Origin: Botrimarina sp.
GTDB taxonomy: Bacteria; Planctomycetota; Planctomycetia; Pirellulales; Lacipirellulaceae
Direction: 5' to 3'
DNA length: 64,000 nucleotides
NCBI GenBank assembly: GCA_965263145.1
Contig: OZ253585.1
Coordinates: 261,668 to 325,667 of the forward strand
Below are positions 9,185-62,776 of the stretch, piece by piece. Each line of letters starts with the position of its first letter. Position 1 is the first letter of the stretch. Made by a program: the position numbers and the translations under genes. The notes beneath the pieces were generated by a model. The model did not search any database, was not told the DNA's origin, and was given only the letters and a program-made list of their open reading frames with translations.

Positions 9185-9227
9185 ATGATTTCTCTGCTTT
9201 CCCTACTTCCAGCTTTGTACTGTGGTT

Positions 9228-14156: not shown

Positions 14157-14229
14157 TTGAGTTAATCACAAGTTATTCAGAGTTGCTTTAGGTTGAGGAG
14201 CAGTCACTTACAGAAATACATGGGTACTA

Positions 14230-16268: not shown

Positions 16269-16742
16269 GGCAATCTAATGAAGATAATGGATGTTGGATT
16301 AGGACATATTTGTTCTATCGTGCAATAAAATAGAACGGCTATTGTAGTATGATTCCATCAAATCTTATGGCAATAGGAGATAGGTAGAGCGTATCTCAAA
16401 ACACCGAATATTATCTCGTTCGTAGACAGGCCTGAAAGGAGACCGAAAGATTAGGAATCGATCCCGGGGCTTTAGACTACGAACCTTCATCGTCACAAAA
16501 TTGGGTGTTTTGTACTTATTGCAATCCAACACTGTCAGCTTAAAATCTCGAATGTTGTCCAAGGCGAAGGCTACCAGCTTAGGTTCACTCGGCTTGTCAA
16601 TCAGTGAACTTTATACAATAGCTGAAGTCGCTGCTACATAAAAAAACCCTGCCTGACTTGCGACCTACTGACATAAGAACTCTGCGGCAGGCTTAAAGCC
16701 TACTGGCCTACAGCGTGTCAAATTGTTCGACGAATTACTAAC

Positions 16743-34122: not shown

Positions 34123-37100
34123 CTATCGCAGATTACCTGCCAAGCAGGCCAATGCGGTAACAAGCATAAGAGCACTCGTTGGTTCAGGTATAGCAACCGA
34201 GGCGGAGGCTTGAATCTGGGTTCCATAATTGGCGGACCATAGATTGTAGTCATCTTGATCTACAACTCCATCAAGGTTGGCATCAGCAGCCAAAGTGATT
34301 CCCGTTTGACCTAGTTCATCTCGCCAGATGGTATAGTCAGCAGCATCAACACTACCATCGTTGTTGAAGTCGCCCATAAGGGTGACCGAGATTTCACCTG
34401 TTGTTAATAACTCGGAAGTGTTCCAAGTTAGCCCAGCTGACAGAGCAGGTAACTGAACTGAATCAAAACTACCTGTAACCGTCGCGAAATCGAGAAGATC
34501 GAAGCTATCACCTGCCTCTGGGGTAAACGATTGGCTTAAGCTAATTGTCAGAGAACCCCCGTCGAGAGTGACATCGCCTTGTACTTCGAGCTTGTCACTG
34601 TTGGCATCGCTGTAGATGTCTAGCTCAAGTGCTGCACCTACCTCGTGCAAGTAGTCTCCTGCGACAAGAATGAAAGCGGGGGACACTAATTGCTCCGTAA
34701 CAACGCTCCCATCAAAAGTAATTCTGGTAGTTACATCCAAGAAGCCATCCGCTTCGTCGCTAAGTACGAGATTATCGATGTGTCCACCCGAATAAACATG
34801 TAATGACCAAAGCTGAATGCCTGCCGTGCCATCATCTTCATCAAAGTCACGGTCATTTAGTAGGTAACTCATATCGGCGCTAGATGACAGACCAGCTTCT
34901 CCAAGACTGACATCCGGGTTAACCCACCATTCGAGTGTATCGTTACCTGTTGCTAAGCTTAATTTACCAACGATAAGCTGAACATCATTGGTGCTTGCAG
35001 TGCTTGGTGAAAAATTACTTAGGTCGTTTGGATTACCGTCAACGAAGAAATCGAGCGTTGCTCCTTGATCTCTTAGCAAAAAGCGATTGTCAAAAATGTT
35101 GCCGTGACCATCAATGTTGATTCCAGCACGACCGCCAGCATCTACTTGTGCCAAGAAGGAAAACCAAACATCTCCATTCAAATCGGTTTGGATAGAACGT
35201 TCGACAGAAGATGCGCCACCAGAAAGTCGTGCCAAATGCTGGCCGTCGCCATCCTGAGTCAGGCCGTAGTTTGTACTTGCTGGGGCAACAAGATCGCCAC
35301 TTACGACATTGATTGTGCCGCCTGAACCGGCGTTCTCCTCTGTATAGGAACTTGACCAGCCAGTACCACCATCCTGTCCCGTAACAACGCCAAGATCGAG
35401 ATCATTGAAGTTTGCAACAACAGGGCCTGATACAGATACAAATTCAGAAGCGACATTAATGGTAGATCCTGAACGAGCAGTTAAGTTACCAAGGATGACG
35501 CCGACACCTTCAACTTTTGAGCCTGTCTGAGATTCGATATCAGCTGCAATAATTTGAGGAAGGGTTTGATTAGCAATAGCTGTTGGTGTGTTAGGCATAC
35601 TTCTCAACTGGAAGGTTTCGCCATTGGCAACAGTCTTTAGGGCGTGAGAGGCAATTCCAAGGTTATTGACTCGGTGTGCTTGGATGTCTTGGTGCACAGC
35701 CCGAAAAGCTTGATAAGCATTACGGTCTTGTCCAACGGTTGCAGCGAGGTTGTTTAATTCCCAAATGTCATTCTGAGTGTCGTAAATCTCGACATAGGCA
35801 GGCAACTCGTCCGATTCATCATCGTAAGTATAGAAAACCTCATAGCGTCCATCGTAACCAGCTAGGATTGGCTTGTTGCCTGCGAAGGTTGATTCCCAGA
35901 TTTCGACGATGTTCGTATTGCGTACCCCAGCACCGTTGCCATTGTCGCTAAACAAGTTCTTGATGCTACTGCCTTGCATGGCTTGAGGGATTTGCGCTCC
36001 AGCGATATCTAAGATTGTGGGTGCAATGTCGACGTTTGAAACTTGACGATCATCCGTACGGCCGGTGTCAACACCAGGACCCATCACCATGAAAGGTACT
36101 CGGGCTGCTTGGTCAAACGGTAGCGACTTACTTGTCATGCCGTGGTCACCAATCATCCATCCGTTATCCGACATGAAGAAGACGTAAGTGTTGTCGATAA
36201 GCATGTGCCCTGGATTACGCGGGTCAGCGGTTGTATTGAGCTTGTCAATTAAGGGAGTTAGCATGTCGTCAAGCTCAGTGATGACGGCATAGTATTCACT
36301 TGTGTGGTCAGCTAGTTCATTGGGATCACCATAGAGATACCGGTTGTCGTTCTGAGCCAGCGTTCGGTTACGAATGTTCTCGTAGTAAGCAGGTTTGTTC
36401 TCTAGGTTGTCGTCCCAGTTACCTGGCAAGTTGTTTACATTGTTGGGAGCATCATAGAAATCAGTCGCATCGTACTTCGCCAAGTTTTCAGGCAACGCAT
36501 CCCAAGCCAAGTTGCCATTTAGGTGAGGTGTTTGGGTGTTGTGCCAGAGAAAGAAAGGCTTGTCAGCGGAGAGAGATTGATCGATGAAGTCAGCCGAGCG
36601 ATCAGCCGCATAGGCATCAATATGTTGGTTGCCAGGTTTAGCTGGGGCATTCGGATCGGAAATGTCTCGATAGTTGCGATAGTAGCTACCATTGCTGTTG
36701 TAAGTTGCGTAGTAATCGAACCCTAAGGCTTGTTGATCAAGTGCATTTCCTAAGTGCCATTTGCCTGTTACGCCGGTCGCGTAGCCTGCGTTTTGAAGTT
36801 CGACACCCAACCGTGGCGAATTGGCGTTAACGCTGTCGCCAAGATTCTCAACACCATTGGTTTGATTGAATTGACCGGTAGTAATTGTCGCACGGGATGG
36901 ACTACAAACAGGTAAGGCAGCACGTGCTTGAGTAAAGCGAACCCCTTGCTGCGCAATCATATCCATGGTTGATGTTTGGATAATGGAATTGCCGTTGGCA
37001 GCCAGTGCGTTGTACTGCTGGTCGTCAGTAAAGATGAAAACAATATTAGGCTGTTGGGCTAATGCCGACTGAGCACATACGAATAACAAGCCTGTGATTA

Positions 37101-37134
37101 AACAACGTAACATGGGATGCCTTTTCAATATCAA
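34123..37134 (-). CDS. Sulfatase (N-terminal) fused to a long beta-rich region with dockerin-like repeat and C-terminal PEP-CTERM anchor
   Basis: Signal peptide. Sulfatase signature PVCSPSRATITTGQ (C-x-P-x-R) and GKWHLG. Near the C-terminus DFNNDGSVDAADYTIWRDELGQ...DANLDGVVDQDDYNLW (dockerin-like). Terminal IPEPTSALMLVTALACLAGNLR is a PEP-CTERM. Confidence 0.8.
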   Translation of the reverse strand: MILKRHPMLRCLITGLLFVCAQSALAQQPNIVFIFTDDQQYNALAANGNSIIQTSTMDMIAQQGVRFTQARAALPVCSPSRATITTGQFNQTNGVENLGDSVNANSPRLGVELQNAGYATGVTGKWHLGNALDQQALGFDYYATYNSNGSYYRNYRDISDPNAPAKPGNQHIDAYAADRSADFIDQSLSADKPFFLWHNTQTPHLNGNLAWDALPENLAKYDATDFYDAPNNVNNLPGNWDDNLENKPAYYENIRNRTLAQNDNRYLYGDPNELADHTSEYYAVITELDDMLTPLIDKLNTTADPRNPGHMLIDNTYVFFMSDNGWMIGDHGMTSKSLPFDQAARVPFMVMGPGVDTGRTDDRQVSNVDIAPTILDIAGAQIPQAMQGSSIKNLFSDNGNGAGVRNTNIVEIWESTFAGNKPILAGYDGRYEVFYTYDDESDELPAYVEIYDTQNDIWELNNLAATVGQDRNAYQAFRAVHQDIQAHRVNNLGIASHALKTVANGETFQLRSMPNTPTAIANQTLPQIIAADIESQTGSKVEGVGVILGNLTARSGSTINVASEFVSVSGPVVANFNDLDLGVVTGQDGGTGWSSSYTEENAGSGGTINVVSGDLVAPASTNYGLTQDGDGQHLARLSGGASSVERSIQTDLNGDVWFSFLAQVDAGGRAGINIDGHGNIFDNRFLLRDQGATLDFFVDGNPNDLSNFSPSTASTNDVQLIVGKLSLATGNDTLEWWVNPDVSLGEAGLSSSADMSYLLNDRDFDEDDGTAGIQLWSLHVYSGGHIDNLVLSDEADGFLDVTTRITFDGSVVTEQLVSPAFILVAGDYLHEVGAALELDIYSDANSDKLEVQGDVTLDGGSLTISLSQSFTPEAGDSFDLLDFATVTGSFDSVQLPALSAGLTWNTSELLTTGEISVTLMGDFNNDGSVDAADYTIWRDELGQTGITLAADANLDGVVDQDDYNLWSANYGTQIQASASVAIPEPTSALMLVTALACLAGNLR

Positions 37135-37242: not shown

Positions 37243-38010
37243 TTAACGACGACGATAAGCGAATGCAGCAGCACCCATAAATGCAATCATAAGAGTTGAT
37301 GGCTCAGGGATAGCCGTTAGCGACACGTTATCAAAAGTCGCTGAACCATGGGAACTCCCACGATTAAACCGGACGGTACTGACAGTCTCTCCCGCTGTAT
37401 CTGGAGTATTTTGGTAAATTGCCAAACCGGTGAAAGTCTCATTCACAGAACCACCTACCACGCTCAAGTCGTAAGTGGGGGTTGCGGTGCCGAAGCCTGA
37501 ACCCGTAATAGTAAAGGTATAAGCTGTCTCGGTAGCGAGGATTAATTCGGTTGCAGGGCCAGATGGATCTAGGTTCTGCCAGCTACCACCACCAAACAAC
37601 TGGAAGGCACCGCCAATATCTTCATTTCCGCTAACTCGCATGTTAATGAATGGAGTGGCATTACCTTGGCGGACGTGTGTGTTCATCATCCGTTGGGTTG
37701 GAATAGTGCTGAACGGACGCAACCAATCAAAAGAGAATACGAAGTCGGATAGGGAATCGCCAACCGTTTGCTGTACATTTCCAGATGAACCTGCCACGCG
37801 TAGACTTTCGCTACCGCTGATGACTTGATTCTGAGCGGTGCCCGATTCTTGGCTAGCTACACCGCCAGAAACGGTCCATCCGTTTGGGAATGTGCCTGTT
37901 GTGTCTTCAAAATCACCATTTGTGATAAGACTCGCATGAGCAGCAGAGCAGCTCACGAAAACTGCAACAGCCGCACAGGCTGTGAGTAGATTGAGAAATT
38001 TACGATGCAT
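37243..38010 (-). CDS. Secreted PEP-CTERM protein (255 aa)
   Basis: Signal peptide MHRKFLNLLTACAAVAVFVSCSAAHA. C-terminal TAIPEPSTLMIAFMGAAAFAYRRR. Confidence 0.6.
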   Translation of the reverse strand: MHRKFLNLLTACAAVAVFVSCSAAHASLITNGDFEDTTGTFPNGWTVSGGVASQESGTAQNQVISGSESLRVAGSSGNVQQTVGDSLSDFVFSFDWLRPFSTIPTQRMMNTHVRQGNATPFINMRVSGNEDIGGAFQLFGGGSWQNLDPSGPATELILATETAYTFTITGSGFGTATPTYDLSVVGGSVNETFTGLAIYQNTPDTAGETVSTVRFNRGSSHGSATFDNVSLTAIPEPSTLMIAFMGAAAFAYRRR

Positions 38011-42719: not shown

Positions 42720-44360
42720 TCAATCCTTATTGGTTGCTATCTCTGGTGTTTTGCTAGGCATCTCATCAAACCAGAGTTCTAGTGTAGGGGCAGGTAGCGT
42801 CGGGTGTTCACGGGAGGCAAACCCATGAACAACGCGGTCTTCAGATGGATCAGAAGAAAGTCCGCTAACGCGGTTGATGCTAAGAGTGATCCAGCCATCA
42901 TTGTCGTAAGTAAGATAGTCGAGCAGGTCGGAGCTCTCAACAAAAACTTGATTACCTTTGATTCCTTTGCCTTGAATTACAAATGACCCAAGCGAGCTTG
43001 CCCCCCAGGGCCCTTTGGGTCTTCCGTGACTGTCAAAATGTTTGGCACCAGGAGCAGTCTCCCAGTTAACTTTTTTTGAATTCCATTTGGGAGTGTTATC
43101 GTCCCAGACGCCATAGACACGAAACTTCCAATCAGTGTCAGTGCTGACATTGGAAGGTTCTATTTCGCTTGCGTAATCGTTTGGTACGACGGTCATTACC
43201 AGACGCGCTCCCGCTAAACGATCTAACGGTAAGTGAGAGAGATCGAAGCCAAGCAATCCTCGGCGGCAATAATGACTATCAACAAGATCAAGCTTAACCC
43301 AGAAGTCTTCCTTGTTAGATCGTATTACTTGACTATGCTTACCGCCAATGACATAGGTGTCTTCTGAGCAGACAATTGATTCATGTGGGAAAGCGAGAGA
43401 ATCAAGGGGGCGGAATATCTCAGTCTCAATGTCTATATAAGGTTTAAGGCTGTTTTTGGAGGTGACCTTAACGGCATTCCCTTCGAAGAACCGACGTTTT
43501 TCGGCATTGTCCGTAGTTGGCTGAACTTCAACTTCTCCCGAGTGGACGTTCAATGTAGCGTTGCCATTAGAATCAGCGTTTACAGCAAAAGAGGTTCCGA
43601 GATCAGTGAATACCGCTTCTTTGGTGATTAGTTGAAAACCTTCAAATCCTTTGTCTACGGTCGCAGTAACCTTGCCAAAGTCGAGACGTACTTCATCTTT
43701 AGAAACAAGATGAAATCTGGCAGGTCCTTGAGCTACAAGAGTTACACCTTCATTGATCCGTAATTCAACAAGGCCACGAGCGAACTCAAAAAAACTGCCA
43801 GCACGGAACTTTGAATCTTTGAGGATTTCATTTCCAAGATCATGTCCAACAGCCGAAGTAACAACTGCAATCGCTGGGCCAGTAGTAGACGATGTAGGCG
43901 AGTTAGACGATTGCATCGCTCTATCAACATCAGGTTGCTGAGGGAAAGCGATCATAATCAAAACACCAGCTGCTAACGCAAGTAAACCAATCAGGTACCT
44001 TGAAGCGTTGACTGCTGTGGGCTGGTGTGTGCGGTCTGAGCTGTCTACTATCTCAAGTTCGTCTTGTGCTAAGCTCTGTTCAATTATTGTCTCTTCAACA
44101 CGCAGTAGTTCATTCGGACTGAATTGTCTTGGTGGATTTATTAAGTACCCAAGGTCAGCATGAGTTTCCAAGTTTTGCTGCCATTTTGCCTGTGCCTCCT
44201 CGGATGAAGAGACAATACTCATGAGTTCATCCAACTCACTCTGAGTACAGCTCTCATCCAACAGCTTGGAGATAAGCAGCTGAAATCGTTCTTTAGGATA
44301 TTTGTCGTTACTGTCCATAGGACTACCTAAGTGGATATTCGCAACCGTCGCTGTATGCAC
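42720..44360 (-). CDS. FecR-like anti-sigma factor with single TM and large periplasmic C-terminal region
   Basis: It lies immediately downstream of, and overlaps, the ECF sigma gene. Mid-protein TM YLIGLLALAAGVLIMIAF. The FecR-like block GFEGFQLITKEAVFTDLGTSFAVN follows. Confidence 0.55.
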   Translation of the reverse strand: MHTATVANIHLGSPMDSNDKYPKERFQLLISKLLDESCTQSELDELMSIVSSSEEAQAKWQQNLETHADLGYLINPPRQFSPNELLRVEETIIEQSLAQDELEIVDSSDRTHQPTAVNASRYLIGLLALAAGVLIMIAFPQQPDVDRAMQSSNSPTSSTTGPAIAVVTSAVGHDLGNEILKDSKFRAGSFFEFARGLVELRINEGVTLVAQGPARFHLVSKDEVRLDFGKVTATVDKGFEGFQLITKEAVFTDLGTSFAVNADSNGNATLNVHSGEVEVQPTTDNAEKRRFFEGNAVKVTSKNSLKPYIDIETEIFRPLDSLAFPHESIVCSEDTYVIGGKHSQVIRSNKEDFWVKLDLVDSHYCRRGLLGFDLSHLPLDRLAGARLVMTVVPNDYASEIEPSNVSTDTDWKFRVYGVWDDNTPKWNSKKVNWETAPGAKHFDSHGRPKGPWGASSLGSFVIQGKGIKGNQVFVESSDLLDYLTYDNDGWITLSINRVSGLSSDPSEDRVVHGFASREHPTLPAPTLELWFDEMPSKTPEIATNKD

Positions 44361-44872
44361 TCGGCAAGTTGGCGACGGATGCGTCTAAGGGCTTGTGAAA
44401 GAGCGTTTTCACTTCTGCCTAATCGATGTGACAGCTTTCTCAATGTGCAGTCAGGTTCGTATCTGCCTCGGACAATTATCTGATCCTTCTCGGGAAGTTT
44501 GTCGAGGCAGTTCTTGAGCGCATCAAGACGGCTCTTTTGTTGCTCCTCAGATCGGTCTGCTACTTTCGTAGCCAAGGATTCAACAAGGGTCTCATCATAA
44601 ATATGGAAGCGATTGGCTCTCTTCTGACGAAATCTTAGAGCTCGATATTTTGCAATCTCTGAAGCCCAGGCATAGAAATTCGTCCCGCTCGTGTAGTCAT
44701 CAAACTTTTGCCATAGTGCAAGATTAGTGTCTTGAAGCACATCGTAGGCATCGGTCGGGTTAAACACCAAAGAGACTATGTAGACATACAGCTTCTGTTG
44801 GTGTTGTGAGAAGAGCTCTAGGAACTCTTCTATGCGGTCTGATTTCTTTCCCTGAGATTCTGATTCTTGCAT
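44327..44872 (-). CDS. ECF-subfamily RNA polymerase sigma-70 factor
   Basis: Region 2 (YVYIVSLVFNPTDAYDVLQDTNLALWQKFDDY...FYAWASEIAKYRALRFRQK) and region 4 HTH (LRKLSHRLGRSENALSQALRRIRRQLAECI). Confidence 0.8.
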   Translation of the reverse strand: MQESESQGKKSDRIEEFLELFSQHQQKLYVYIVSLVFNPTDAYDVLQDTNLALWQKFDDYTSGTNFYAWASEIAKYRALRFRQKRANRFHIYDETLVESLATKVADRSEEQQKSRLDALKNCLDKLPEKDQIIVRGRYEPDCTLRKLSHRLGRSENALSQALRRIRRQLAECIQRRLRIST

Positions 44873-44921: not shown

Positions 44922-47900
44922 TTATTTGCGGGCTCCACGCGATGCTCCAACAGCAACTAGCGAGCAAAGCATCAAGAACGAAGACGTTGGCTCAGGCACA
45001 GGAGCAAATACTGCTGCAAGACCCGATGTCGAAACACTTGCATTGATAAGAGCTGATTGCATCAGCAAAGCATCATCAAAATCTGTGTCACCGTCTAAAT
45101 CTAGGTCACCCATGGGGAAAGTTGAGATATCTCCAACTAGACTACCGCCAGTGGTTCCATCTAGGAAGCCAAGGCTACTCTCATTCAGCCAGCCAGCGAC
45201 AAAATCGTCAACGTCCGATTGATTCAAGAATCCATCACTGTTGATATCACCCGCCACACCAGTGAATAGACCCGCTGAGCGAGCAAACCCGTTGTCACGA
45301 ACAAAGTTGTAATCACCATGGTCTTCAATTGGTTCCGCACCAGGGCCTTCTTCCGATACACCCCATGTGAAAACCTCCACTTGGTCAAGCGTACCGGTAA
45401 AGAAATCTTGGGTGCCGCCACTGAACGTGGTTTCATCTCCAGCTGTGTTAGCTCCTAGTACTAAATCAGCGGTGTCTTGTGGTACTTGAGGATCATCACC
45501 CGTTTTGTAGGTACTGCTGGTACGCCCAATCCCAATGCCGTTAAGGTGCATAACCGTACCGACACCCCTTTCACGAACAACCGAAACGTGTGACCAAGCG
45601 TCAAAGTTAACGGCTATCTCGGTGTCGTACTCAACATCGTTAGATTGAAGGATCCATGTATTATCTTCGCTAATCAGGATGCCAAACTGATTCGTGTCAT
45701 GCATAACCGACTGACGTGTTCCCGAAGCGGATGAGTTTGGATTTATCCAAAGCTGCATACCACGATTACGAAGTCCCGTGTAGTTTTTCGAGAATCCGTC
45801 AGGCTGGTTATTTATAGGGCTGATTGAACCAGCTGAGTTTTCGGGATTGCCAAAGCGGCGTTGGTGTAGGTAGTCACCATTCCCGTCAAAGGTGATTCCG
45901 ATTGTGCTGCTATCGGCCCCTGCACCGGGGCGTGCAGAAACATCAGCATAGACTGGATTACCTGCGACGGCGCCCAGGGGATTGGTTACAGCCCCATCGA
46001 AGTCAACGTAGTATCTGCTCGAGTCAAACGATTGTGTCACCGTTGCACCAACCGAACCGCTTTCTTCTTCACCTAGTTGAAGATCACGGTCGAAGATGAT
46101 CGCTTGGGCAGGAGTCGCGGTGGCAGCAACCATCGCGACTGCGGCAACCACAGGAAGGACTCGACGAGTACGACGACGAACAAACATTGCAATACCTCCT
46201 AGTAAGCAAATGCCTAGTGAACCTGGCTCAGGAACTGCTGATGCAGCTGATGAGGATGACGAGCTACTCGCTCCGTAGTTGCCTGACCACAAGGTATAGT
46301 CGCCAGCATCAACCGTGCCGTCGCCATCGCCATTGCCATTCAAGACCGAATCGCTTTGGCCAAGGTTGTCACGCCAAACGGTGTAGTCCGCCGCGTCGAC
46401 CGAGCCATCGTTGTTGAAGTCTCCAGCCAAGCCAACTGGTGGCTCGACGTTGACGAATTCGACTAGGCCTTCAACCAAATTGCCCTCAGGCGTTCGGTAG
46501 CTGAATGAGATATTTTCCGACTGGGTTACGTTATCGATAACAGCTTCGCCAAGATAAACAGACTCGCCAAAGGCCAAGCTAGAGTTGCCAAGTAGGAAAG
46601 CTTCACCAAGCGTGTCGCTATCGGATAAACCTCCCTCTTCCCAACCATTACCGGTTCCATCACCAGCGGGGAAGGCGGCAAGATTTTGGTCTTCTAGGCT
46701 ATTCCATCCAACCGTATCTAGTTCGCCAAGAGCACTGTCAACTTGATAAAAAGCAAAATCGATGCTGCCAGCAACATCCGTGTTAGCAATTCTTATATCC
46801 CCATCTACTGGGTCAACTTGCAATGTTAGCGGTAGGGTGGGAATCGGTGCTACCGATGCTGAATCGATGTTGGCGTAGATTTCATAGAGGTCAGCGCTGC
46901 CTTCATCACCAACTAGAATCCCGCGAATTGCTGTACCATTTGTAAGGGCAGCCCCAGTTTCGTCCAGCAGATCGGTGAAGTCAAAAGCGACACCAGTAAC
47001 GGTGCGATTACCACCACCGCCCAATGGTGTTGCATCAGATCCGTATAAGTCACCTAAAGAGGAAACCGAGTTCCAAGTACTCAATGCGACTGATTCACCG
47101 ACTGTTCCGTTGCCAAGAATTGCACGAACTTCGACGCTATCGTTTCCAAGATCTTCAAAGATGAAGAAGTCCGGGTCTGCATCGTTGTCAGTTAGTCCGG
47201 TTGTATTGTTGTCGCCCCAATAGAGTGCCATTGCACCGCCGTTCTGTTCCGGGTTACCAGTTGACCCTGCAACCCCAGTCAAAACATTGTTGTCGAAAGC
47301 AAATCCTTGATTGGCATCCATAGGATCAACAACAGTACCGGTCAAAACCGAATCGCCTGTTGCAACACCTAGAAGACCGCCAGCACCACGATTGTCTTGG
47401 GCAATGTCAGCGATTGTGAAAGGACCATTGTAATTGGTTGAATTGATCTCAACTCCCGTGAGGGCGTTGTTTACATCGAGTGTGACTGAATCAATTCCAA
47501 CGACCAAAGCTTCTGCTTTATGTGCTGAGAAAGAGAACGTAACAACAAAGAGGATTGCTGGGACAATTGCATTTCGGCTAAATGTACGCATGCGACGTGA
47601 TCCTGCTAGTGAACCGGTTAATGCAAAGAGAATAAGAAGGCTTGCTGATCCTGGTTCAGGAACCGCAGCGATAAGAGCCTCGAAGGAACCAACTCCATTT
47701 GCTGTTTCGAAAGCGGTACGGAACTGCTGGTAGTCAAATCCATTGACAATTCCATTGCCACTGATGTCACCATTAAAGTAGGACTGCGCTGTAGGCAGGG
47801 ATGAGAAATCCCCAAACAGATTTGATCGCAATATGCCCCAATCAAGGGCATCAATCACGCCATCACTATTGAAGTCCCCACTTTCAATGGTAGCTCCATT

Positions 47901-49016
47901 CACGAAATCCACTTGGGCTGACACCGTTGATCCATCGGGAAGCGAATATTCCAGTTGGACATCCTCAAAAGGATTCGCAGTCCAAGCCCCAACGCCGAGT
48001 GAAATCGATTGACCTGGGTTCAAAGTTGCCCCAGCCAAAGACTCGAAATCGATTTCACTTAGGTCACCAGTAGCCGTTGGACTAGAAAGTTCCGTCCAAT
48101 CGTCGCCGGAAATGGTTGGTGACCCTGATCCATTAACATCGTAAGTGTCGCTAATGGATGTCCAGTTGCTTGCATCAAGGCCCCCTGCCGCTGATGTAAA
48201 GCTATAACCCGTAAATGTGACAGCCCCTGCAACGGCGTCATTCGGGTTCGTAAGGGTGATTTCTCCTGTCAATCGATCTATAGTTGCAGTCAAAGATGAT
48301 GGGACTACCGTTCCAGCTACCAAGCTGACATCATCGATATTGTAGTCGTCCCAGTTGGATCGACTGGCGAACTGAATTCGGTCGGCCGTGCCACCAGAAA
48401 TCTGTCCATTGTTTTGAAAAAGAGAAACTACGCCACTGGTATTTGATGTGGTAGCAGAGCCTGGGTTTGGATTTGACCAGTTAACGGAATAACTGGCGTC
48501 ATTAATATCGCCCGTTCCGAAGCCGTCAAAGTCAATCTCGAAGTAGTAGATTGAGCTCTCATCGAATGCGCCTACGGTTGAAAGAGTATTCCAGCTGCCA
48601 CCTGAGAAGGCTTCTAGCGTAGCATTCATACCATCAAGTTGTGCCAAACGGAGGTTAATACCTGCCGTCCCTGCGTCAGTTCCAAACACAAGATTGAAAG
48701 CACGTTCAGTCGTGTCGAAGGTTGTCGTTTGCAACCACCATGACAGAACGCCATCACTAGCTCCTGAAGCGGTGTCTTGGAAGAAGTCGTCGCCTGCACC
48801 AGTTGTGCCTGTGCCTGAAAGAATGGCATGTTGGGTTGAGCCAGGGGCAAAACCAGTACCAGCAGTAGCATTGCCATCGGAATTGTCCCAACCAGTGGCA
48901 AATGGGTTTGTCTCAAAGTCACCGTTCACTACAGTTTGGCCCAGTGCGGTTGAGCAGCTTACAAAAGCCGCCAAAGCCGTACATGCGGCTAGATGAATAA
49001 TGAAATTACGTTGCAT
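44922..49016 (-). CDS. 1364-aa ORF made of three tandem secreted PEP-CTERM paralog modules fused in-frame
   Basis: Three PEP-CTERM termini inside one ORF: VPEPGSASLLILFALTGSLAGSRR (~aa 452-475), VPEPGSLGICLLGGIAMFVRRRTRR (~aa 928-952) and the final VPEPTSSFLMLCSLVAVGASRGARK. Each internal one is directly followed by a new signal-peptide-like segment (MRTFSRNAIVPAILFVVTFSFSAHKA; MFVRRRTRRVLPVVAAVAMVAATATPAQA). Each module also carries a DFNxDG dockerin-like repeat. Confidence 0.6.
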   Translation of the reverse strand: MQRNFIIHLAACTALAAFVSCSTALGQTVVNGDFETNPFATGWDNSDGNATAGTGFAPGSTQHAILSGTGTTGAGDDFFQDTASGASDGVLSWWLQTTTFDTTERAFNLVFGTDAGTAGINLRLAQLDGMNATLEAFSGGSWNTLSTVGAFDESSIYYFEIDFDGFGTGDINDASYSVNWSNPNPGSATTSNTSGVVSLFQNNGQISGGTADRIQFASRSNWDDYNIDDVSLVAGTVVPSSLTATIDRLTGEITLTNPNDAVAGAVTFTGYSFTSAAGGLDASNWTSISDTYDVNGSGSPTISGDDWTELSSPTATGDLSEIDFESLAGATLNPGQSISLGVGAWTANPFEDVQLEYSLPDGSTVSAQVDFVNGATIESGDFNSDGVIDALDWGILRSNLFGDFSSLPTAQSYFNGDISGNGIVNGFDYQQFRTAFETANGVGSFEALIAAVPEPGSASLLILFALTGSLAGSRRMRTFSRNAIVPAILFVVTFSFSAHKAEALVVGIDSVTLDVNNALTGVEINSTNYNGPFTIADIAQDNRGAGGLLGVATGDSVLTGTVVDPMDANQGFAFDNNVLTGVAGSTGNPEQNGGAMALYWGDNNTTGLTDNDADPDFFIFEDLGNDSVEVRAILGNGTVGESVALSTWNSVSSLGDLYGSDATPLGGGGNRTVTGVAFDFTDLLDETGAALTNGTAIRGILVGDEGSADLYEIYANIDSASVAPIPTLPLTLQVDPVDGDIRIANTDVAGSIDFAFYQVDSALGELDTVGWNSLEDQNLAAFPAGDGTGNGWEEGGLSDSDTLGEAFLLGNSSLAFGESVYLGEAVIDNVTQSENISFSYRTPEGNLVEGLVEFVNVEPPVGLAGDFNNDGSVDAADYTVWRDNLGQSDSVLNGNGDGDGTVDAGDYTLWSGNYGASSSSSSSAASAVPEPGSLGICLLGGIAMFVRRRTRRVLPVVAAVAMVAATATPAQAIIFDRDLQLGEEESGSVGATVTQSFDSSRYYVDFDGAVTNPLGAVAGNPVYADVSARPGAGADSSTIGITFDGNGDYLHQRRFGNPENSAGSISPINNQPDGFSKNYTGLRNRGMQLWINPNSSASGTRQSVMHDTNQFGILISEDNTWILQSNDVEYDTEIAVNFDAWSHVSVVRERGVGTVMHLNGIGIGRTSSTYKTGDDPQVPQDTADLVLGANTAGDETTFSGGTQDFFTGTLDQVEVFTWGVSEEGPGAEPIEDHGDYNFVRDNGFARSAGLFTGVAGDINSDGFLNQSDVDDFVAGWLNESSLGFLDGTTGGSLVGDISTFPMGDLDLDGDTDFDDALLMQSALINASVSTSGLAAVFAPVPEPTSSFLMLCSLVAVGASRGARK

Positions 49017-50603: not shown

Positions 50604-51965
50604 CTAATTGCGTCGCGCACTTCGCTTGATGCCTAGCAACGAAACTAACATGCAGGAAATAAGTCCAGAGGTGCTGGGCTCTGGTACTGCCGTTGCTGAT
50701 GCCGTTGCTGATGAGGTGCCGTAGTTAGAAACCCAGAAGTTGTAGTCCTCTTGGTCAACCACACCTGGCGTGCTGGCTGCGGGGTTCTCATTTGGTAGTG
50801 TTACATTCTGATTTAGATTGTCTCGCCATACCGTATAGTCGGCTGCGTCAACTTCTCCATCATTGTTGTAGTCACCTGGTACGCCAGCAGTTGTCACGAC
50901 TTCGATAAGTGCTTCGCGGATTTCCCCATCAGGACGGCGGTACTCAAACGTGAGTGAGTCCGTATCACCACCCGGTTTGAAGGCTGTCCCCAGATCGACG
51001 GTTCTGTTTTGTCCAAAGATAGAGGTGCTAAGCAAGAAAGCCTCCGAGAGGACATCATCACTTGAACCTCCAGCTTCGTCCCACGTCTCACCAATACCGT
51101 TTCCGACAGTTGAGTCAGGATCGAGGCCATCAATAGCATCGATTTCTTGATCACTAAGACTATTCCAACCAGCAAAATTGAGATCGCTAGTTGAGCTTGA
51201 AAGGCGGTACCAATCAAATTCAAAATCGGTGCCCGATTCGTTGAATAACTCAACCTGACCAGTAACGGAATTGACTTGCAACTTCAGAGCATCGAAGTCC
51301 GAGTAACGGACGTCGTCGAACGAGTTGAATGCAGAGAAACCAGCACCGACGTTGGGGTCGCCTGTAAAGGAAAACGAAGTGATTTCTGCCCCGGGATCGG
51401 TATCGAGGACTCCAAAGAACCCTGTGAAGTTGTTTGAGGAATCAAATGCTGTGACAATTTCCCCGTTAGTCCCTTCAAAGCTGAGGAAAGTTCCGTCGTC
51501 ATCGTTGTCGTAGTTTTTGTACTCAAATGCAAAGGCCTCGACCCCGGGCGGTAGGGAAACGGTCACTGTCTCTTGAGAGTTTGCACCGGTTCCTTTGTCG
51601 AGGAATCGTAGACTGACGACGGCATTTCCATTGATGACGGCGCCTGAGCTGACATAGCCGGAGCCATCGCCAACATCATCAACGTCGATAATCGCGTTGT
51701 CACTGAAGTTTGCGTTGGCGGAAAGTCCCAGAATGCCGTTTGGGCTACGTGTTGAGTTTGAAGCCGTGCCAAAAAAATCGTCACTCACCTGTCCTTCAAA
51801 GTCTTCTAGATGCGTAATCCCTCCCACTGCGGCTTGCCATGATGCCAAATCAGTAAAGGTTTGAATCTCGGCAGTAGCGACGCTTGAGACGCAAATTGCG
51901 GCGACAAAAGTAAACAGGCCTATCTGGCGTTTACTGGTAATAGCTCTCAGGGTGTTGGTAAACAT
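50604..51965 (-). CDS. Secreted PEP-CTERM protein with dockerin-like repeat (453 aa)
   Basis: Signal peptide. GDYNNDGEVDAADYTVWRDNL. Terminal AVPEPSTSGLISCMLVSLLGIKRSARRN. Confidence 0.6.
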   Translation of the reverse strand: MFTNTLRAITSKRQIGLFTFVAAICVSSVATAEIQTFTDLASWQAAVGGITHLEDFEGQVSDDFFGTASNSTRSPNGILGLSANANFSDNAIIDVDDVGDGSGYVSSGAVINGNAVVSLRFLDKGTGANSQETVTVSLPPGVEAFAFEYKNYDNDDDGTFLSFEGTNGEIVTAFDSSNNFTGFFGVLDTDPGAEITSFSFTGDPNVGAGFSAFNSFDDVRYSDFDALKLQVNSVTGQVELFNESGTDFEFDWYRLSSSTSDLNFAGWNSLSDQEIDAIDGLDPDSTVGNGIGETWDEAGGSSDDVLSEAFLLSTSIFGQNRTVDLGTAFKPGGDTDSLTFEYRRPDGEIREALIEVVTTAGVPGDYNNDGEVDAADYTVWRDNLNQNVTLPNENPAASTPGVVDQEDYNFWVSNYGTSSATASATAVPEPSTSGLISCMLVSLLGIKRSARRN

Positions 51966-52041
51966 GAGTATATCCTTGCTTCAGATTGTGTTTGTCGGTG
52001 CACTTTTATATTGATAGGTTGAGTCGGTTTTGTCGTTAGAT

Positions 52042-53526
52042 TCAAGAACCTTTACGTCGGACTGAAAGCATGCTCCCAAAGAATACCGAGACCAGCATTA
52101 AGCTGGTTGGCTCTGGCACCGAAGTAGCCAGCATGACAGCAAACGATCCAGTGCCATTGGCTTCTTCGAAGAGTTCTTTAAAGAGGCTAAAATCGGCAAC
52201 GCTCGTGATGCCTCCGTAATTGAGGTCCCCAGCTTGATATGCTTCTGCGAGGGAAAGTGCTGATAGATCAGCTTCTAGACCGCTAACCAGAGCGTTCCAG
52301 TCATCGACGGTGATTGAGCCATCGAAATTTAAGTCGCCTACTTCAAATGGGTTTCCACTATTGCCGACAAATTCGACAGTGGCACTGCGCACTACATTAC
52401 CAGCAAAAAGCAACTGTGCTTGCAGGTCTTCTCGTGGATTCTTAATCCAGCTTCCGCCGGGGCCACTCAAGATGACTTCCTGGCCAATGCCAAGGACCCC
52501 ACCGTCGCCCGAGTCGAATGATTCACTTACTTCAGTTGTCGTTGATGTAACAATGCTCCAATCATCATCCACATCAACGGATCCATCACCGGGGCCTGAG
52601 GCATTGTCATAGTTATCCGTGATTGGCATCCAGCCACCAGTGTCGAATGCGCCGACTGCAGAAGTTAACGAGTAAGACTCCAAGCCGGAAAGAACTTGTC
52701 CCGTTGTGTTGATCAGTTTCATAACGCCAGTGTCGCGATTCACTTCGAGCGTCATTAAGTCAGTCAATGGATTAACGTCGGTCAAAGCAATTCGGTCGAT
52801 GGTGAAGTTCTCATCAAGATCAGTACCAAAGTTGTTGTTGGCCACAAATCGGATCGAATTACCATTACGCGATGGAGCTACGCTACCCGAGCCGAGTGAC
52901 TGGGAAGGCCCTGAACCATCCTTGTAAAAGATTTCATATCTTTCATTGGCCTTATCAAGCTCTAGTACCATGGTGAATGGATTGGTCTGAACCGTGGAGA
53001 GTTGAGCGGTCGAAGAGAGGTTTGACGCTCCACTTCCCAGGGCACTTCCTTCAAGTTGTATGTTCCCCGTGGTAACATCACGTGTTATCTGTACCTGGGC
53101 AGTAATTGCTGATCCATCGGTGCCGGTATCGTCATCAAGAAACGCGAAGCGAATTTGTTCTGGATCAATCGACTCGCCAATAAGATCCGGTCCACGGAAA
53201 TCCCATCCTGCGACATCGACAATAATATACCGGCTTCCTGAAGTCGAAGAATCAATGTTGTCAATTTGCAGATAGCTTGGGGCAAAGACATCACTGAATT
53301 TAGAAACACGGTAACCGCCATCAAACACGAACGAATCGGTTAGTAGGTTGGTGTTGGTGGACCAATTATTTGCAGGATTTATTGAGTTGGCCGTGTTTCC
53401 AAGCTCCGTAAAGTTTGAATCGTTAAATTCAAATGCTTCAAAATCGATTCCCTTTGCGATCGTTGCGGATAAGCATATCGCAACCATAGCTAGATAGAGG
53501 AATTTACTTTCATTGCTACTGTTCAT
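52042..53526 (-). CDS. Secreted PEP-CTERM protein (494 aa)
   Basis: Signal peptide. VGDLNFDGSITVDDWNAL. Terminal SVPEPTSLMLVSVFFGSMLSVRRKGS. Same architecture as its neighbours. Confidence 0.6.
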   Translation of the reverse strand: MNSSNESKFLYLAMVAICLSATIAKGIDFEAFEFNDSNFTELGNTANSINPANNWSTNTNLLTDSFVFDGGYRVSKFSDVFAPSYLQIDNIDSSTSGSRYIIVDVAGWDFRGPDLIGESIDPEQIRFAFLDDDTGTDGSAITAQVQITRDVTTGNIQLEGSALGSGASNLSSTAQLSTVQTNPFTMVLELDKANERYEIFYKDGSGPSQSLGSGSVAPSRNGNSIRFVANNNFGTDLDENFTIDRIALTDVNPLTDLMTLEVNRDTGVMKLINTTGQVLSGLESYSLTSAVGAFDTGGWMPITDNYDNASGPGDGSVDVDDDWSIVTSTTTEVSESFDSGDGGVLGIGQEVILSGPGGSWIKNPREDLQAQLLFAGNVVRSATVEFVGNSGNPFEVGDLNFDGSITVDDWNALVSGLEADLSALSLAEAYQAGDLNYGGITSVADFSLFKELFEEANGTGSFAVMLATSVPEPTSLMLVSVFFGSMLSVRRKGS

Positions 53527-55012
53527 TGGATTCCCTATTCAAAGTGTGCAGTAAGCGTTTAGTTCTTAGTGAGAATATTGGTGTAAATAAAGCAGCAGCG
53601 ATAAGCATGCTGGTCGAGGGTTCTGGTACAGCGAATAGTGCCGCAAAAGCTGTTGTTCCATTTTCCGCTATGAATGAATCCTTAAACAATCCAAAGTCTT
53701 TGCCGCTATTAAATCCATCGCCATCAAGGTCTCCCAGGTAATAGGCGTCTTCGCTACTAAGCCCACTGAGGTCGGTTTCAGCGTTGGCAATGAACAATTC
53801 CCAATCGAGCAAGTCTAAAAATCCGTCGGTATTGAGGTCACCAAGTAGAGGAATCGAAATTTCCATTTGGTAGAAGCCAACGCTTCCGTAGTCGGAGTAC
53901 CGACCAGGATTGTCGACCCCGTCCACATAGAAAGTGTAGGAGCCTGATTCGAGGAAGATATCAAAGTCAATATTTGGTGTGACCGAAGGATCAAACTCAG
54001 CAACAACGGCACCCGAGTCGTTATAGAGGACGACCCCCACATCAAGATTAGGATCCTGAGCAAAGCCACTCACTTCGATTCCAACTTCACCTCGTCCTGT
54101 TGTAAATCGAAAGTAGTCTCGGTCGTTGCGATCTTCAATAATGCCCCATTCCTCCATCACTCTTCCGTTGGGGGTGAGATCGTGAGGGGTGCTTAGATCG
54201 TTTAGATAGTCGTCTGATCGGAAACCGAATCCTCGGCTGGTAATAAAAGAGTAATCGTCAGCGAAGTTAGTGGCTCCGGCATAGTCGCCATTGCTCCACT
54301 GAGAGATTGTCGCATCGAAGGGAGCCCCCATGATTGGCCCCCAGCTTGTGCGACCAAAGCCTCCAGTGCCTGGGTGATATTCAAGGCTATTTAGACCATC
54401 GTGAGTAAGGCCAAAAGAATGCCCCGCTTCGTGCGTTGCCGTTTGTCCCCCTTTGCGAGCTCCCTTGTTGAAGACAAAGACCGGGTTGTCGACCGGATCA
54501 TCGAAGCCGGTAGGGCCGGCGTTGCCACCGATCCCGTCCCCAAAGCCAGCGGTCGCTTGGGTCATTACTACACGAACTCCCCAGTGAACATCAAAATCGC
54601 CTCGCCGACGCAGAGCTGCAACCCCTGGGTTTCTCGTGGTCACGTTGACGTTGAAAGGGATGTAGTCTTCAGCAACATTTTGGAAGATCTTCTGGATCTC
54701 AATCCTTTCAGTTTCGCTGAAGATGCTGGGATCTCCATCCAAATCGTAATTTGGAAAAACGATGTTGTGACCCCAGGAATTGTTCACACTGTGGTGACCT
54801 GTGAAATCAAGGAAGATCGTTTTAGTAGCAGAAGGGTTGCTGGAAAGATTGAAGGTTTGGTCCAAAGGATAGGGAGCCGTGGTATTCGGATCACCAAACG
54901 TAAATGTCCCATCGATATATGCCGGGTATATTGCTGCGTTTGCGTGGGTTGCTGTGATCGCAACCACCACAATCAACGCAATGCGGAAGCAATATGACGG
55001 ATTGGCAAACAA
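53516..55012 (-). CDS. Secreted zinc metalloprotease (reprolysin/M12B-like HExxHxxGxxHD) with dockerin-like repeat and PEP-CTERM anchor
   Basis: HEAGHSFGLTHDG zinc-binding motif. Signal peptide. C-terminal GDLNTDGFLDLLDWELF and AVPEPSTSMLIAAALFTPIFSLRTKR. Confidence 0.65.
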   Translation of the reverse strand: MFANPSYCFRIALIVVVAITATHANAAIYPAYIDGTFTFGDPNTTAPYPLDQTFNLSSNPSATKTIFLDFTGHHSVNNSWGHNIVFPNYDLDGDPSIFSETERIEIQKIFQNVAEDYIPFNVNVTTRNPGVAALRRRGDFDVHWGVRVVMTQATAGFGDGIGGNAGPTGFDDPVDNPVFVFNKGARKGGQTATHEAGHSFGLTHDGLNSLEYHPGTGGFGRTSWGPIMGAPFDATISQWSNGDYAGATNFADDYSFITSRGFGFRSDDYLNDLSTPHDLTPNGRVMEEWGIIEDRNDRDYFRFTTGRGEVGIEVSGFAQDPNLDVGVVLYNDSGAVVAEFDPSVTPNIDFDIFLESGSYTFYVDGVDNPGRYSDYGSVGFYQMEISIPLLGDLNTDGFLDLLDWELFIANAETDLSGLSSEDAYYLGDLDGDGFNSGKDFGLFKDSFIAENGTTAFAALFAVPEPSTSMLIAAALFTPIFSLRTKRLLHTLNRESNEQ

Positions 55013-57079: not shown

Positions 57080-59077
57080 TCATTCCTGTTGCTCACGAAC
57101 AAGACGAAATCCAACGTTAGGTAATGCGACATCGGGGTTAACTCCCAGGCGGAAAGATGGAGTTGCGGTTTGTCGTTCAGTATCCCAACCGCCACCACGG
57201 ACTGATTTCATGGTCCCTGAATCAGGTCCTATTGGGTTGATGACAGGCTCCTGCGATTGCTTGTAGCCAGCTTGCCAGTCAAGCGTCCACTCCCAGACAT
57301 TGCCTGACATGTCGAGGCATCCAACCGGAGATCGACTTGCTTTGTATGATCCAACGGGCGTGGTTGATGGAGTGATCACATTCTCTGATTCATTATTGCT
57401 GTTCATGAAAGTCGCATTTGCTAAGGGAGCAAACCGATCGCGAGAAATTCCAGTGCGGTAGGCTCTGCCGTTATTGGAATCCCACCCTGCAGCTTTCTCC
57501 CACTGGGCTTCTGTGGGCAAGCTGGCGTTGTTAGCTTCTGCCATCGCTTTTGCACCGTGCCATGTGACATAATTTACCGGGTGGTCCGCTCGTCGGTCGC
57601 GATATACCACTTGTCCCTTGTCGAGCGTAAGCAGCGCTAAGGGAGCATGCGGCCAAAGTGAACACCAATCTTTGCCGGAGGAAGTGCTGCGTACTGTCTT
57701 GTCGTCAATTACCGCGTTCCCTTCTGCAATTTGCTTGTTGAGGAAATCGGCATACTGACGACATGTCACTTCAGTCGCGCTAATCTCATACGCATCAAGC
57801 TGAACCCAGTGGCGTGGCCATTCAATGCTCCATCCTTCGCCTTGGGGTGCACCCATTAAGAATGCACCGGCAGGGACTTTACACCATCTTGTCTCTTTTG
57901 TGATTGATCCATCGACGATAGCGGGCTCAAGGCTCTGGCGTTTTATGCTGGTAGGTACGATTTCTTCTTGGATCTTTTTTAAGTAGGCCGCCAGCACGCG
58001 AGATGTCTTTGGGCGGTTCTGAGGATCGATGCGCATTGAATCGGGAGATTCAATATGTATCGCCCGGCGAGAGACTTCGCTATTCAGCACCCCATAGACT
58101 CGTCCTCCCAACCCAGAGTAATAGAAGTCTGTTTGAACTCCCATGTATTCGTATTTGCGATCTTCGATCAGATTCCCCCAATAGCTCTTTGGCGATTGGT
58201 CCCCATATTCTGCTTGCACACATGAATCGAAGGCTACCTTAAGTTGCTGAATCTCTGCGGTAGTAAAACCGCGGGTCATGCATTCAAAGACATTGCGATA
58301 GTGATTCTTTCCCTCGGCATCGGTAACCGAAAGATCGTGCCCATGAAAGTCCAGATAAAGGTCTAGCGGCGGGCTGCCTGGTTCGTAACTGGGAGGCGTT
58401 CCAATACGATGGGTCTTGTCCTTGAATGTAGTGTAAATAGCAGTCGCTTCATCGGTCCAATCACGATAGGGAAGAATCCCATAGTTGGATGGTCGAGGGC
58501 GTCGCTGAAGCGGTCGATTCACATCGATCCAGCGGCCCAAGTAAGTGATCCGAGATCCATACGCACAGACTGAGGGGACTTTGCATAACTCGGTTGTACC
58601 AACAACGATTTCGCCGGTGTACATATCACAGTCACCATGTGGTGCGCCAAGCACAACGCCAGGCCATTGTGATTGATCTCCTTGCTGTGATTCGATGCGA
58701 ATTGGCGAATCGATTCTCTCAAGCGTTGTCTCACTGGCATTCAGGAGTCTCATCTTGACGATTGCTGTACCTGGCTGAACGTCAAGTTTATCTCGCAGTG
58801 ACTTCTTGATCGAAACCGTTTGTGGATGCCGAGTAATCGGATAAAGTAAGACTTCAAGTTGATTCTCTCCGCTTGATAGCATCGCTGCACATCCGGGCGA
58901 AGCATCGAGCTGTTTAAATAGTTTGGGGGATACCAGCGCGACATCGCCTAGCTGCACCGCACTGAGCGGAGTCATCTCTACCTGATTGAATTCCCAAGTC
59001 CCAGCAGCTGATACTGGCAATGCCATCAGCAGCAGTGCCCAGGCTAATATGAGTTGGTATTGATTACAGTTTGTCAT
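57080..59077 (-). CDS. FGE-sulfatase (SUMF1/formylglycine-generating enzyme-like) domain protein with ~370-aa N-terminal extension
   Basis: Signal peptide. The C-terminal half has DMSGNVWEWTLDW and RGGGWDTE, hallmarks of the FGE/DUF323 fold. Confidence 0.7.
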   Translation of the reverse strand: MTNCNQYQLILAWALLLMALPVSAAGTWEFNQVEMTPLSAVQLGDVALVSPKLFKQLDASPGCAAMLSSGENQLEVLLYPITRHPQTVSIKKSLRDKLDVQPGTAIVKMRLLNASETTLERIDSPIRIESQQGDQSQWPGVVLGAPHGDCDMYTGEIVVGTTELCKVPSVCAYGSRITYLGRWIDVNRPLQRRPRPSNYGILPYRDWTDEATAIYTTFKDKTHRIGTPPSYEPGSPPLDLYLDFHGHDLSVTDAEGKNHYRNVFECMTRGFTTAEIQQLKVAFDSCVQAEYGDQSPKSYWGNLIEDRKYEYMGVQTDFYYSGLGGRVYGVLNSEVSRRAIHIESPDSMRIDPQNRPKTSRVLAAYLKKIQEEIVPTSIKRQSLEPAIVDGSITKETRWCKVPAGAFLMGAPQGEGWSIEWPRHWVQLDAYEISATEVTCRQYADFLNKQIAEGNAVIDDKTVRSTSSGKDWCSLWPHAPLALLTLDKGQVVYRDRRADHPVNYVTWHGAKAMAEANNASLPTEAQWEKAAGWDSNNGRAYRTGISRDRFAPLANATFMNSNNESENVITPSTTPVGSYKASRSPVGCLDMSGNVWEWTLDWQAGYKQSQEPVINPIGPDSGTMKSVRGGGWDTERQTATPSFRLGVNPDVALPNVGFRLVREQQE

Positions 59078-59096
59078 CTGTCTTAAGCCCTTGTGT

Positions 59097-61444: not shown

Positions 61445-61456
61445 GTTGACCTGCAG

Positions 61457-62737: not shown

Positions 62738-62776
62738 GTCTCAAACACAGCAAGACTTTCACGTAGCGTTACCAAA

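Follow-up and report, generated by a model that had tools for sequence, protein, structure and literature searches.

Why does one protein of a planctomycete carry, in a single chain, three copies of a sorting signal that is expected only at the end of a protein? The question is raised by a 64,000-nt stretch of Botrimarina sp. DNA (contig OZ253585.1, positions 261,668 to 325,667; the whole stretch is called the window from here on), in which positions 44922..49016 of the minus strand form a single open reading frame (ORF) that starts with ATG and runs for 1364 residues with 0 internal stop codons. PEP motifs start at residues 453, 929 and 1341 of its product, and of the three PEP-CTERM signals to which they belong two are internal, each of them directly followed by a segment that resembles a signal peptide. 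This agrees with a first-pass annotation that had described one 1364-residue ORF with two internal PEP-CTERM termini, each followed by a new signal peptide. The answer that we consider probable is that the ORF encodes a polyprotein exported by Sec, whose junctions would form membrane hairpins and would be cut by signal peptidase and exosortase to give three surface proteins.

A trivial origin has to be weighed first, namely that the stop codons between three tandem genes were erased by a very recent mutation or through an error in sequencing or assembly; recent stop loss or assembly collapse was also among the explanations offered by the first-pass annotation. The surroundings lend themselves to such an event, given that tandem single-module PEP-CTERM genes adjoin the ORF (50604..55012) with tiny spacers between them (a 76-nt gap and an 11-nt overlap), and frameshift errors do occur in low-coverage long-read contigs of relatives. 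However, independent assemblies and strains concur on the fusion. The 1364-residue protein is 100% identical to P0171, encoded on a 3.81-Mb NCBI/ENA contig, and the ORF is also whole in L001, a 284-kb contig of a second, 98%-identical strain, where it differs from the window ORF by 79 substitutions and one in-frame indel of 6 nt. Since 60 of these substitutions are synonymous and 19 non-synonymous, purifying selection appears to act on the intact gene. In a third assembly, which is ridden with frameshifts, the breaks lie away from the junctions, and the fragments P0167 and P0169 keep the reading frame across junctions 1 and 2. Between 44.9 and 55.1 kb, direct DNA repeats of at least 30 nt are absent, and therefore a collapse of the assembly was rejected. 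Likewise, no spacer between modules remains at either junction, so that a single point mutation in a stop codon cannot explain them and more than that would be required. The same fusion is also present in homologs of 46-50% identity and in closed genomes of Aeoliella isolates. An artefact or a pseudogene is thus extremely improbable, and recent stop loss or assembly collapse was discarded as refuted: 44922..49016 is a real, conserved ORF.

The chain begins with an N-terminal signal peptide (residues 1-26, MQRNFIIHLAACTALAAFVSCSTALG, 48939..49016) that can be recognised heuristically by a basic residue, a hydrophobic core and ALG, and whose cleavage site is predicted from the sequence. The mature part of module 1 (residues 27-451, 47664..48938) consists of an N-domain, a shared beta-sandwich domain and a dockerin-like segment, and ends in the internal PEP-CTERM signal 1 (residues 452-475, VPEPGSASLLILFALTGSLAGSRR, 47592..47663). 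The signal-peptide-like segment 2 (residues 476-503, MRTFSRN-AIVPAILFVVTFSFSA-HKAEA, 47508..47591) follows at once, with a predicted cut after AEA that is based on its sequence features and on the class statistics described below. Module 2 (mature part, residues 504-927, 46236..47507) has an N-domain of unknown fold, the conserved beta-sandwich and a dockerin-like segment, and is followed by the internal PEP-CTERM signal 2 (residues 928-952, VPEPGSLGICLLGGIAMFVRRRTRR, 46161..46235) and by the signal-peptide-like segment 3 (residues 953-972, VLPVVAAVAMVAATAT-PAQA, 46101..46160). The predicted cut of this last segment, after AQA, lies 3 residues ahead of the conserved DRxLxLGEE with which module 3 starts. 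The mature part of module 3 (residues 973-1339, 45000..46100) is formed by a ConA/LamG-like jelly roll and a helical dockerin-like part, and the chain closes with PEP-CTERM signal 3 (residues 1340-1364, 44925..44999). After the first copy of the signal 887 residues follow, and after the second 413; copy 3 alone is terminal. All these features are on the minus strand.

Junction 1 reads VPEPGSASLLILFALTGSLAGSRR, then MRTFSRNAIVPAILFVVTFSFSAHKAEA, then LVVG, with an ATG at 47591 that has an AGGA upstream at a spacing of 9 nt. Junction 2 reads VPEPGSLGICLLGGIAMFVRRRTRR, then VLPVVAAVAMVAATATPAQA, then IIFDR, and here the ATG, at 46187, is within the anchor helix and has GGAGG-N7 upstream. Both internal segments can be divided into a positive n-region (MRTFSRN and RRRTRR, respectively), an uncharged h-region and an AxA ending; they begin at residues 476 and 953, and hence not at the N-terminus of the chain. 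In junction 2, RRRTRR is both the basic tail of the anchor and the n-region of the signal that comes after it, a double role that had been pointed out in the first-pass annotation.

Another aspect is whether the internal copies are sorting signals by their sequence, a point on which the first-pass annotation had made its reading depend. All three copies have the tripartite PEP-CTERM motif, i.e., PEP, a hydrophobic helix of ~15-20 residues and a basic cluster; copies 1 and 2 depart from the description of the signal only in that they are not at the extreme C-terminus. Pfam PF07589 gives 14.9, 17.1 and 15.6 bits for signals 1, 2 and 3, respectively, against a gathering score of 20.7, and the terminal copies of neighbouring genes obtain 13-17 bits. 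TIGR02595 gives 18 bits for signal 2 with a cutoff of 16. A family-specific hidden Markov model (HMM), trained on 131 terminal tails of homologs, assigns 20.7 and 32.6 bits to the internal signals versus 16.8 bits to the true terminal one. By Pfam and by the family HMM the internal stretches score like terminal ones, and signal 2 exceeds the TIGR02595 cutoff; the internal stretches therefore do score as sorting signals.

The extent of this arrangement was addressed using the C-terminal domain of module 2 (residues 715-952) as a phmmer query against 1.84 billion cluster representatives (E<=1e-3), which retrieved 25049 of them. Among the best 150 of these 25049 matches, 131 carry a PEP-CTERM-like signal; at least one signal is internal in 105, at least two in 38, and three in one. 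Statistics of the junctions were obtained from 164 internal signals across 166 proteins. An uncharged hydrophobic 10-mer is found no more than 75 residues after the internal PEP-CTERM in 163/164 cases, compared with a background of 6.6%. The loop that separates both hydrophobic segments has a median of 8 residues (range 2-41) and is positive in every case, with a net charge that averages +4.4, a bias that is partly by construction given that the search pattern demands two basic residues. A strict AxA follows the internal segment in 71% of the cases, versus 22% of random windows and 64% of the N-terminal signal peptides of the same proteins, and the median family-HMM score is 22.2 bits for internal and 25.1 bits for terminal PEP-CTERM signals. 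From the statistics on hydrophobic segment, loop charge, AxA and HMM score, it follows that the junction is a defined recurrent element composed of PEP, helix, positive loop, helix and AxA.

The complete layout is also conserved. P0002, P0003 and P0004 (46-50% identity, 1309-1343 residues) keep the three modules and both junctions, with length variation in frame; what varies between lineages is the N-terminal domain of modules 1 and 2, and conservation extends to the C-terminal domains, to the junctions and to module 3. Cultured carriers with closed or near-closed genomes were found by cluster look-ups, i.e., Aeoliella mucimassa, with two fusions on a 6.6-Mb contig (QDU55080.1, 1420 residues, with junctions near residues 477 and 974, and QDU58705.1, 1275 residues, with junctions near residues 419 and 854), A. 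straminimaris (WP_252851220.1) and Aeoliella sp. SH292 (WP_442482290.1). Metagenome-assembled genomes labelled Pirellulales or Pirellulaceae also carry fusions. A scan of GTDB genome contigs with the full-length alignment gave 599 pattern matches, of which 0 were confirmed. The gamma-glutamyltransferase encoded in the window shares 57-63% identity with those of Botrimarina, Pseudobythopirellula, Pirellulimonas and Aeoliella, which makes the source an uncultured planctomycete related to the Lacipirellulaceae (order Pirellulales).

Some members of the family show further variation. P0178 is a second three-module polyprotein (1345 residues), a paralog encoded on the same 3.81-Mb contig as P0171, and is ~68% identical to the window protein from the C-terminus of module 2 through module 3. 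In P0020, the representative of the 90%-identity cluster of P0178, a stretch of 47 residues at junction 2 is identical to that of the window (SAVPEPGSLGICLLGGIAMFVRRRTRRVLPVVAAVAMVAATATPAQAI), which suggests either gene conversion or an unusually strong constraint on the hairpin. Both the order and the number of modules vary in the family: in P0067 the module-3-type module comes first, and P0053 contains three junctions inside its chain, of which two come after modules that are near-identical repeats.

How could such a chain yield conventional surface proteins? In the mechanism that we propose, the N-terminal signal peptide would start the export of module 1, and the PEP-CTERM helix of each module would act as a stop-transfer anchor crossing the membrane from outside to inside. 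The short and strongly positive loop would remain in the cytoplasm, and the next hydrophobic segment would function as an internal signal peptide, crossing from inside to outside and re-engaging Sec for the following module. Signal peptidase I would then cut after AEA (residue 503) and AQA (residue 972), and exosortase at each PEP motif. The products would be three conventional mature proteins, as if they had been made from separate genes, and two hairpins that would be discarded; a likely benefit is the synthesis of the three proteins in fixed 1:1:1 amounts and their co-localised delivery at one translocation site. Each junction has the sequence features of a stop-transfer helix, a positive loop and an internal signal; how these segments lie in the membrane, the two kinds of cut and the advantage to the cell are inferred.

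On the other hand, the same alternation of topology fits a stable membrane protein with five helices, which would be left uncleaved or be cleaved only in part. The hairpins would then be permanent anchors of a polytopic protein with three periplasmic domains, and the PEP-like motifs would be relics that are no longer processed; the Pfam scores below the gathering threshold are compatible with this. Nevertheless, AxA is enriched after the second helix as it is in true N-terminal signal peptides (71% and 64%, with the background of 22%), and the internal AxA is as far from the start motif of module 3 as it is in stand-alone genes, which are described below. The internal PEP-CTERM signals retain full scores with the family HMM, which argues for continued selection on the motif, and the homologs include both split and fused versions. 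A permanently anchored protein is for these reasons unlikely.

Several points weigh against the processed polyprotein as we propose it. Translation as a single chain, the topology and both cleavages are all deduced from sequence, and it is an assumption of the mechanism that exosortase would accept a PEP-CTERM helix with a second helix behind it. No Pfam match to an exosortase was obtained among 36 ORFs of at least 150 residues in the window, a scan that excluded the ORFs in 57080..63748. The signal peptides were called with hydropathy and AxA heuristics of our own making and not with a dedicated predictor, and the family sample was retrieved with a query from this very protein, so that the 70% of matches with an internal signal describes this family and not PEP-CTERM proteins overall. 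Lastly, both junctions of this ORF do have an in-frame ATG (47591 and 46187), from which extra proteins could be started.

This last point leads to another explanation, in which modules 2 and 3 would be made mainly from the ATG codons at 47591 and 46187, and the read-through chain would be a minor or tolerated by-product. Both codons have a purine-rich motif upstream (AGGA-N9 and GGAGG-N7, respectively), and at junction 2 the combination of LGG[VI]AM in the protein with GGAGG-N7-ATG in the DNA is seen again in L002 and L004. It is, however, absent from L003, and it encodes the Leu-Gly-Gly-[Val/Ile]-Ala-Met of the anchor helix, whose Gly-Gly codons account for the motif. Moreover, GGAGG is upstream of the start in 0/34 of the ORFs taken as genes of the window, most of which have no Shine-Dalgarno-like motif, whereas GGAGG-N5-9-ATG occurs 10 times in the 64 kb. 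Motifs of this kind are therefore uninformative in this genome, and the Shine-Dalgarno support for internal starts was dropped once the gene starts of the window had been checked. The AGGA that the first-pass annotation had noted upstream of the ATG at 47591 is present, at a 9-nt spacing, but carries no weight as a ribosome-binding site for the same reason.

The homologs are also informative in this respect. Junction 1 of L003 contains no ATG, GTG or TTG between PEP and AxA, and its junction 2 is devoid of Met; in junction 1 of L002 the start codons are restricted to the h-region, and Met is also missing from the junction of P0005, which is the homolog closest to module 2. A Met is present in just 38 of 163 loops (23%). 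With start codons missing from many junctions, initiation inside the ORF cannot be how such modules are made in general. Neither is it needed, since ribosomes that start at 49016 meet no stop codon and must make the fusion. Within the ORF, sites that resemble promoters or terminators are no more frequent than expected from shuffled sequences. We consider it improbable that internal starts are the main source of modules 2 and 3. Hence, of the two arrangements that the first-pass annotation had placed side by side, polyprotein or internal start, the polyprotein is the one retained.

Proteins of the kind joined in this ORF are also encoded by separate genes, as seen in stand-alone module-3 genes, in a split locus and in the single-module paralogs of the window. 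A search with the mature module 3 retrieved stand-alone proteins of 400-450 residues with PF13385. The true stand-alone genes (P0183, P0185 and P0187-P0197) have ordinary N-terminal signal peptides, in which AxA is located 3-5 residues ahead of the conserved DRxYxxGDD (e.g., SVSA/ATLDRDY). In the fused forms the internal AxA is found at the same distance from the start of module 3 (e.g., ASA/AVTLDRYF, and AQA/IIFDRDL in the window). Four other candidates were rejected: P0184 and P0186 begin upstream of a PEP-CTERM junction and have no signal peptide at their start, and P0181 and P0182 are fragments of fused genes in frameshifted long-read contigs of 2-3x coverage. The latter two exemplify a trap for annotation, in which frameshifts in such contigs break the fused genes (L005 5400..6130 and L006 1..330) and the gene caller picks as the start a Met within the PEP-CTERM helix or ahead of it.

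The split state is seen in L008, where a dockerin and PEP-CTERM tail of the module-2 type is followed by a stop codon, 67 nt, and the ATG of a module-3-type gene. In L007, a lone module-3-type gene is followed by a two-module fusion, adjoining genes for an extracytoplasmic function (ECF) sigma factor and FecR. Junctions with long loops, e.g., that of P0045 (~30 residues that include Met-Lys-Leu), resemble former spacers translated in frame. Together these cases form a series, from split genes to fusions with a long loop and then to fusions with a minimal, shared basic cluster.

In the window itself, the three tandem single-module PEP-CTERM genes that lie upstream on the same strand (50604..51965, 52042..53526 and 53516..55012, minus strand) are packed tightly. 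The last one, which encodes a reprolysin-like metalloprotease, overlaps 52042..53526 by 11 nt, and the next gap is the one of 76 nt. As a result of this packing, small indels could fuse these genes. The split homologs of the window and of L008 have the same domains, signals and type of locus as the fused modules; they differ in that a stop codon and a spacer separate them and that each protein is translated and exported alone, unlike the fused ORF.

The signals described here belong to the PEP-CTERM/exosortase (EpsH, XrtA) system, which is known from planctomycetes; Rhodopirellula baltica was reported to have 12 members and an EpsH homolog, RB2461 (Haft et al. 2006, PMC1569441). The likeness to that system (PMC1569441; TIGR02595, PF07589) resides in the tripartite signal that ends each module and in the signal peptide that begins it, and neighbouring genes of the window are conventional members. 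The difference is that its signal is C-terminal by definition, whereas here 2/3 copies are internal and fused to the next signal peptide. In the searchable literature we came across no account of PEP-CTERM signals that are internal or in tandem, or of exosortase polyproteins; an earlier mention may nevertheless exist. The layout, conserved and widespread in Pirellulales, is therefore an apparently undescribed variant of a known sorting system.

The closest parallel in terms of topology comes from viruses. In the structural polyproteins of flaviviruses (prM-E-NS1), the anchor is a hairpin of two helices, i.e., a stop-transfer helix and the signal of the next protein, which is cut by the host signal peptidase. 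The membrane logic of the window protein, as read from its sequence, would be identical, with the second helix cleaved on the lumenal or periplasmic side. The flavivirus proteins are, however, viral, are processed in the eukaryotic endoplasmic reticulum and have no sequence relationship with the protein described here; in addition, no second enzyme removes their anchor, whereas exosortase would do so here. Among bacteria, FbcH of Bradyrhizobium japonicum, reportedly described by Thony-Meyer and colleagues in 1991, is said to be a polyprotein of cytochrome b-c1 in which one signal peptide is internal. It likewise is a single bacterial ORF whose downstream product is freed by signal peptidase at an internal signal located behind a membrane segment. 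Nonetheless it is a single case, in which two subunits of the same respiratory complex are linked, and not a recurrent modular junction; its upstream part is a polytopic membrane protein, instead of an exported protein with a removable sorting anchor. To our knowledge, the close counterparts of bacterial secretory polyproteins are limited to the viral polyproteins and this one cytochrome fusion.

On balance, we lean towards the wider proposal that Pirellulales routinely export surface proteins as 'beads-on-a-string' polyproteins, in which the merged sorting signal and signal peptide would serve as a disposable hairpin, and a single Sec event followed by the cuts of signal peptidase and exosortase would deliver two to four cargoes in fixed stoichiometry. 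If true, flavivirus polyprotein biogenesis would have a counterpart in bacteria, a 'C-terminal' sorting signal would be put to a previously unrecognised use, and bacteria would own a modular, repeatedly evolved secretory-polyprotein mechanism. PEP-CTERM and related tags are annotated as strictly C-terminal; here the PEP-CTERM tag is regularly internal, with a signal peptide behind it that restarts export, and this is so for thousands of predicted proteins, among them some of cultured strains with closed genomes. The arrangement also bears on substrate recognition by exosortase, i.e., whether a free C-terminus is required, and it indicates that gene fusion can be selectively neutral or useful where two signals have compatible topology. 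For annotation, the consequence is that a fused ORF bears the label of one 'PEP-CTERM sorting domain-containing' protein, and that noisy assemblies yield false genes at the Met of the anchor helix.

As regards the identity of the modules, the first-pass annotation had considered the three of them paralogous. This is so for modules 1 and 2, which by blastp share a C-terminal domain of ~240 residues (31% identity, E=1e-16), but not for module 3, which has in common with them only the dockerin-like/PEP-CTERM tail and is otherwise LamG-type. The C-terminal domain of module 1 is closest to that of gene 52042..53526 and the one of module 2 to that of 50604..51965, and the N-domain of module 1 is homologous to a PEP-CTERM gene of 255 residues at 37243..38010 (all by blastp). 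For dockerin type I (PF00404, Dockerin_1), module 1 obtains 28.6 bits, above the gathering score of 22.9, and module 2 obtains 17.0 bits, below it, and no cohesin partner was identified; dockerins of the PDB match module 1 at E=0.004, and the sequence searches of the PDB with the three modules gave dockerin-level matches only.

Structural models add to this picture. The AlphaFold2 (AF2) model of module 3 (pLDDT 83.5, pTM 0.86) shows a jelly roll and a helical dockerin-like part, and its Foldseek matches in the PDB, with E ~1e-7, are domain 4 of AbnA, which is a carbohydrate-binding domain, the lectin domain of a trans-sialidase, and pentraxins. According to the model, module 3 has a LamG/concanavalin-A-like jelly-roll fold, and its homologs carry PF13385 (Laminin_G_3). 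In the model of module 2, the C-terminal domain is a confident beta-sandwich with high pLDDT, and the N-terminal 220 residues are poorly modelled (pLDDT <50); the search with the fold of the beta-sandwich gave generic Ig-like and weak cohesin-like matches only. The cohesin matches, obtained with the shared domain of module 2 (46236..46850), are 2xdh and 6kgc_A, with a probability of 0.63-0.77 and a TM-score, normalised by target length, of 0.31-0.37. If this likeness to cohesins were real, the modules might bind the dockerin-like parts of each other, which would give a reason for their 1:1:1 synthesis.

The genes that surround the ORF give some indication of its role. Immediately downstream there is an ECF sigma factor (44327..44872, minus strand; Pfam Sigma70_r2/r4), followed by a FecR/CBM96-type anti-sigma factor (42720..44360, minus strand), assigned by Pfam and synteny; the same neighbours are found in L001, L002, L004 and L007. 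At four divergent loci (those of the window, L002, L004 and L007) the polyprotein is syntenic with such a pair, in which the anti-sigma factor is of the FecR type and carries a CBM96 or a LamG domain, and the order of the genes varies; this suggests that the polyprotein genes are regulated by glycan sensing. The loci of P0002-P0004 share as neighbours the ECF sigma factor, the FecR/CBM96 anti-sigma factor, DUF1559 proteins and sulfatases. Given that the locus in the window includes sulfatases, a NAGPA phosphodiester glycosidase, DUF1559 proteins, and the ECF sigma factor with its CBM96-containing anti-sigma factor, a role in surface glycan binding or utilisation is suggested, and the modules resemble components for glycan binding or adhesion in a polysaccharide-utilisation-type locus under control of the adjacent sigma/anti-sigma pair. 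One of the sulfatases, of 1003 residues (34123..37134, minus strand; Sulfatase and SGSH_C), has a dockerin-like segment and a PEP-CTERM tail ending in IPEPTSALMLVTALACLAGNLR; therefore, enzymes of this locus use the same surface-sorting tail as the modules of the polyprotein.

At a distance from this locus, the window also contains a probable defence or mobile island (8435..17471) with a lowered GC content of 0.42-0.45. It encodes a DUF3991 protein and an HTH_36 protein, an Eco57I/N6_Mtase methylase (11644..13215) together with a BsuBI/PstI endonuclease (13212..14156), and a RelA/SpoT-like protein (14230..15207) whose gene overlaps that of a GmrSD_N protein (15204..16268).

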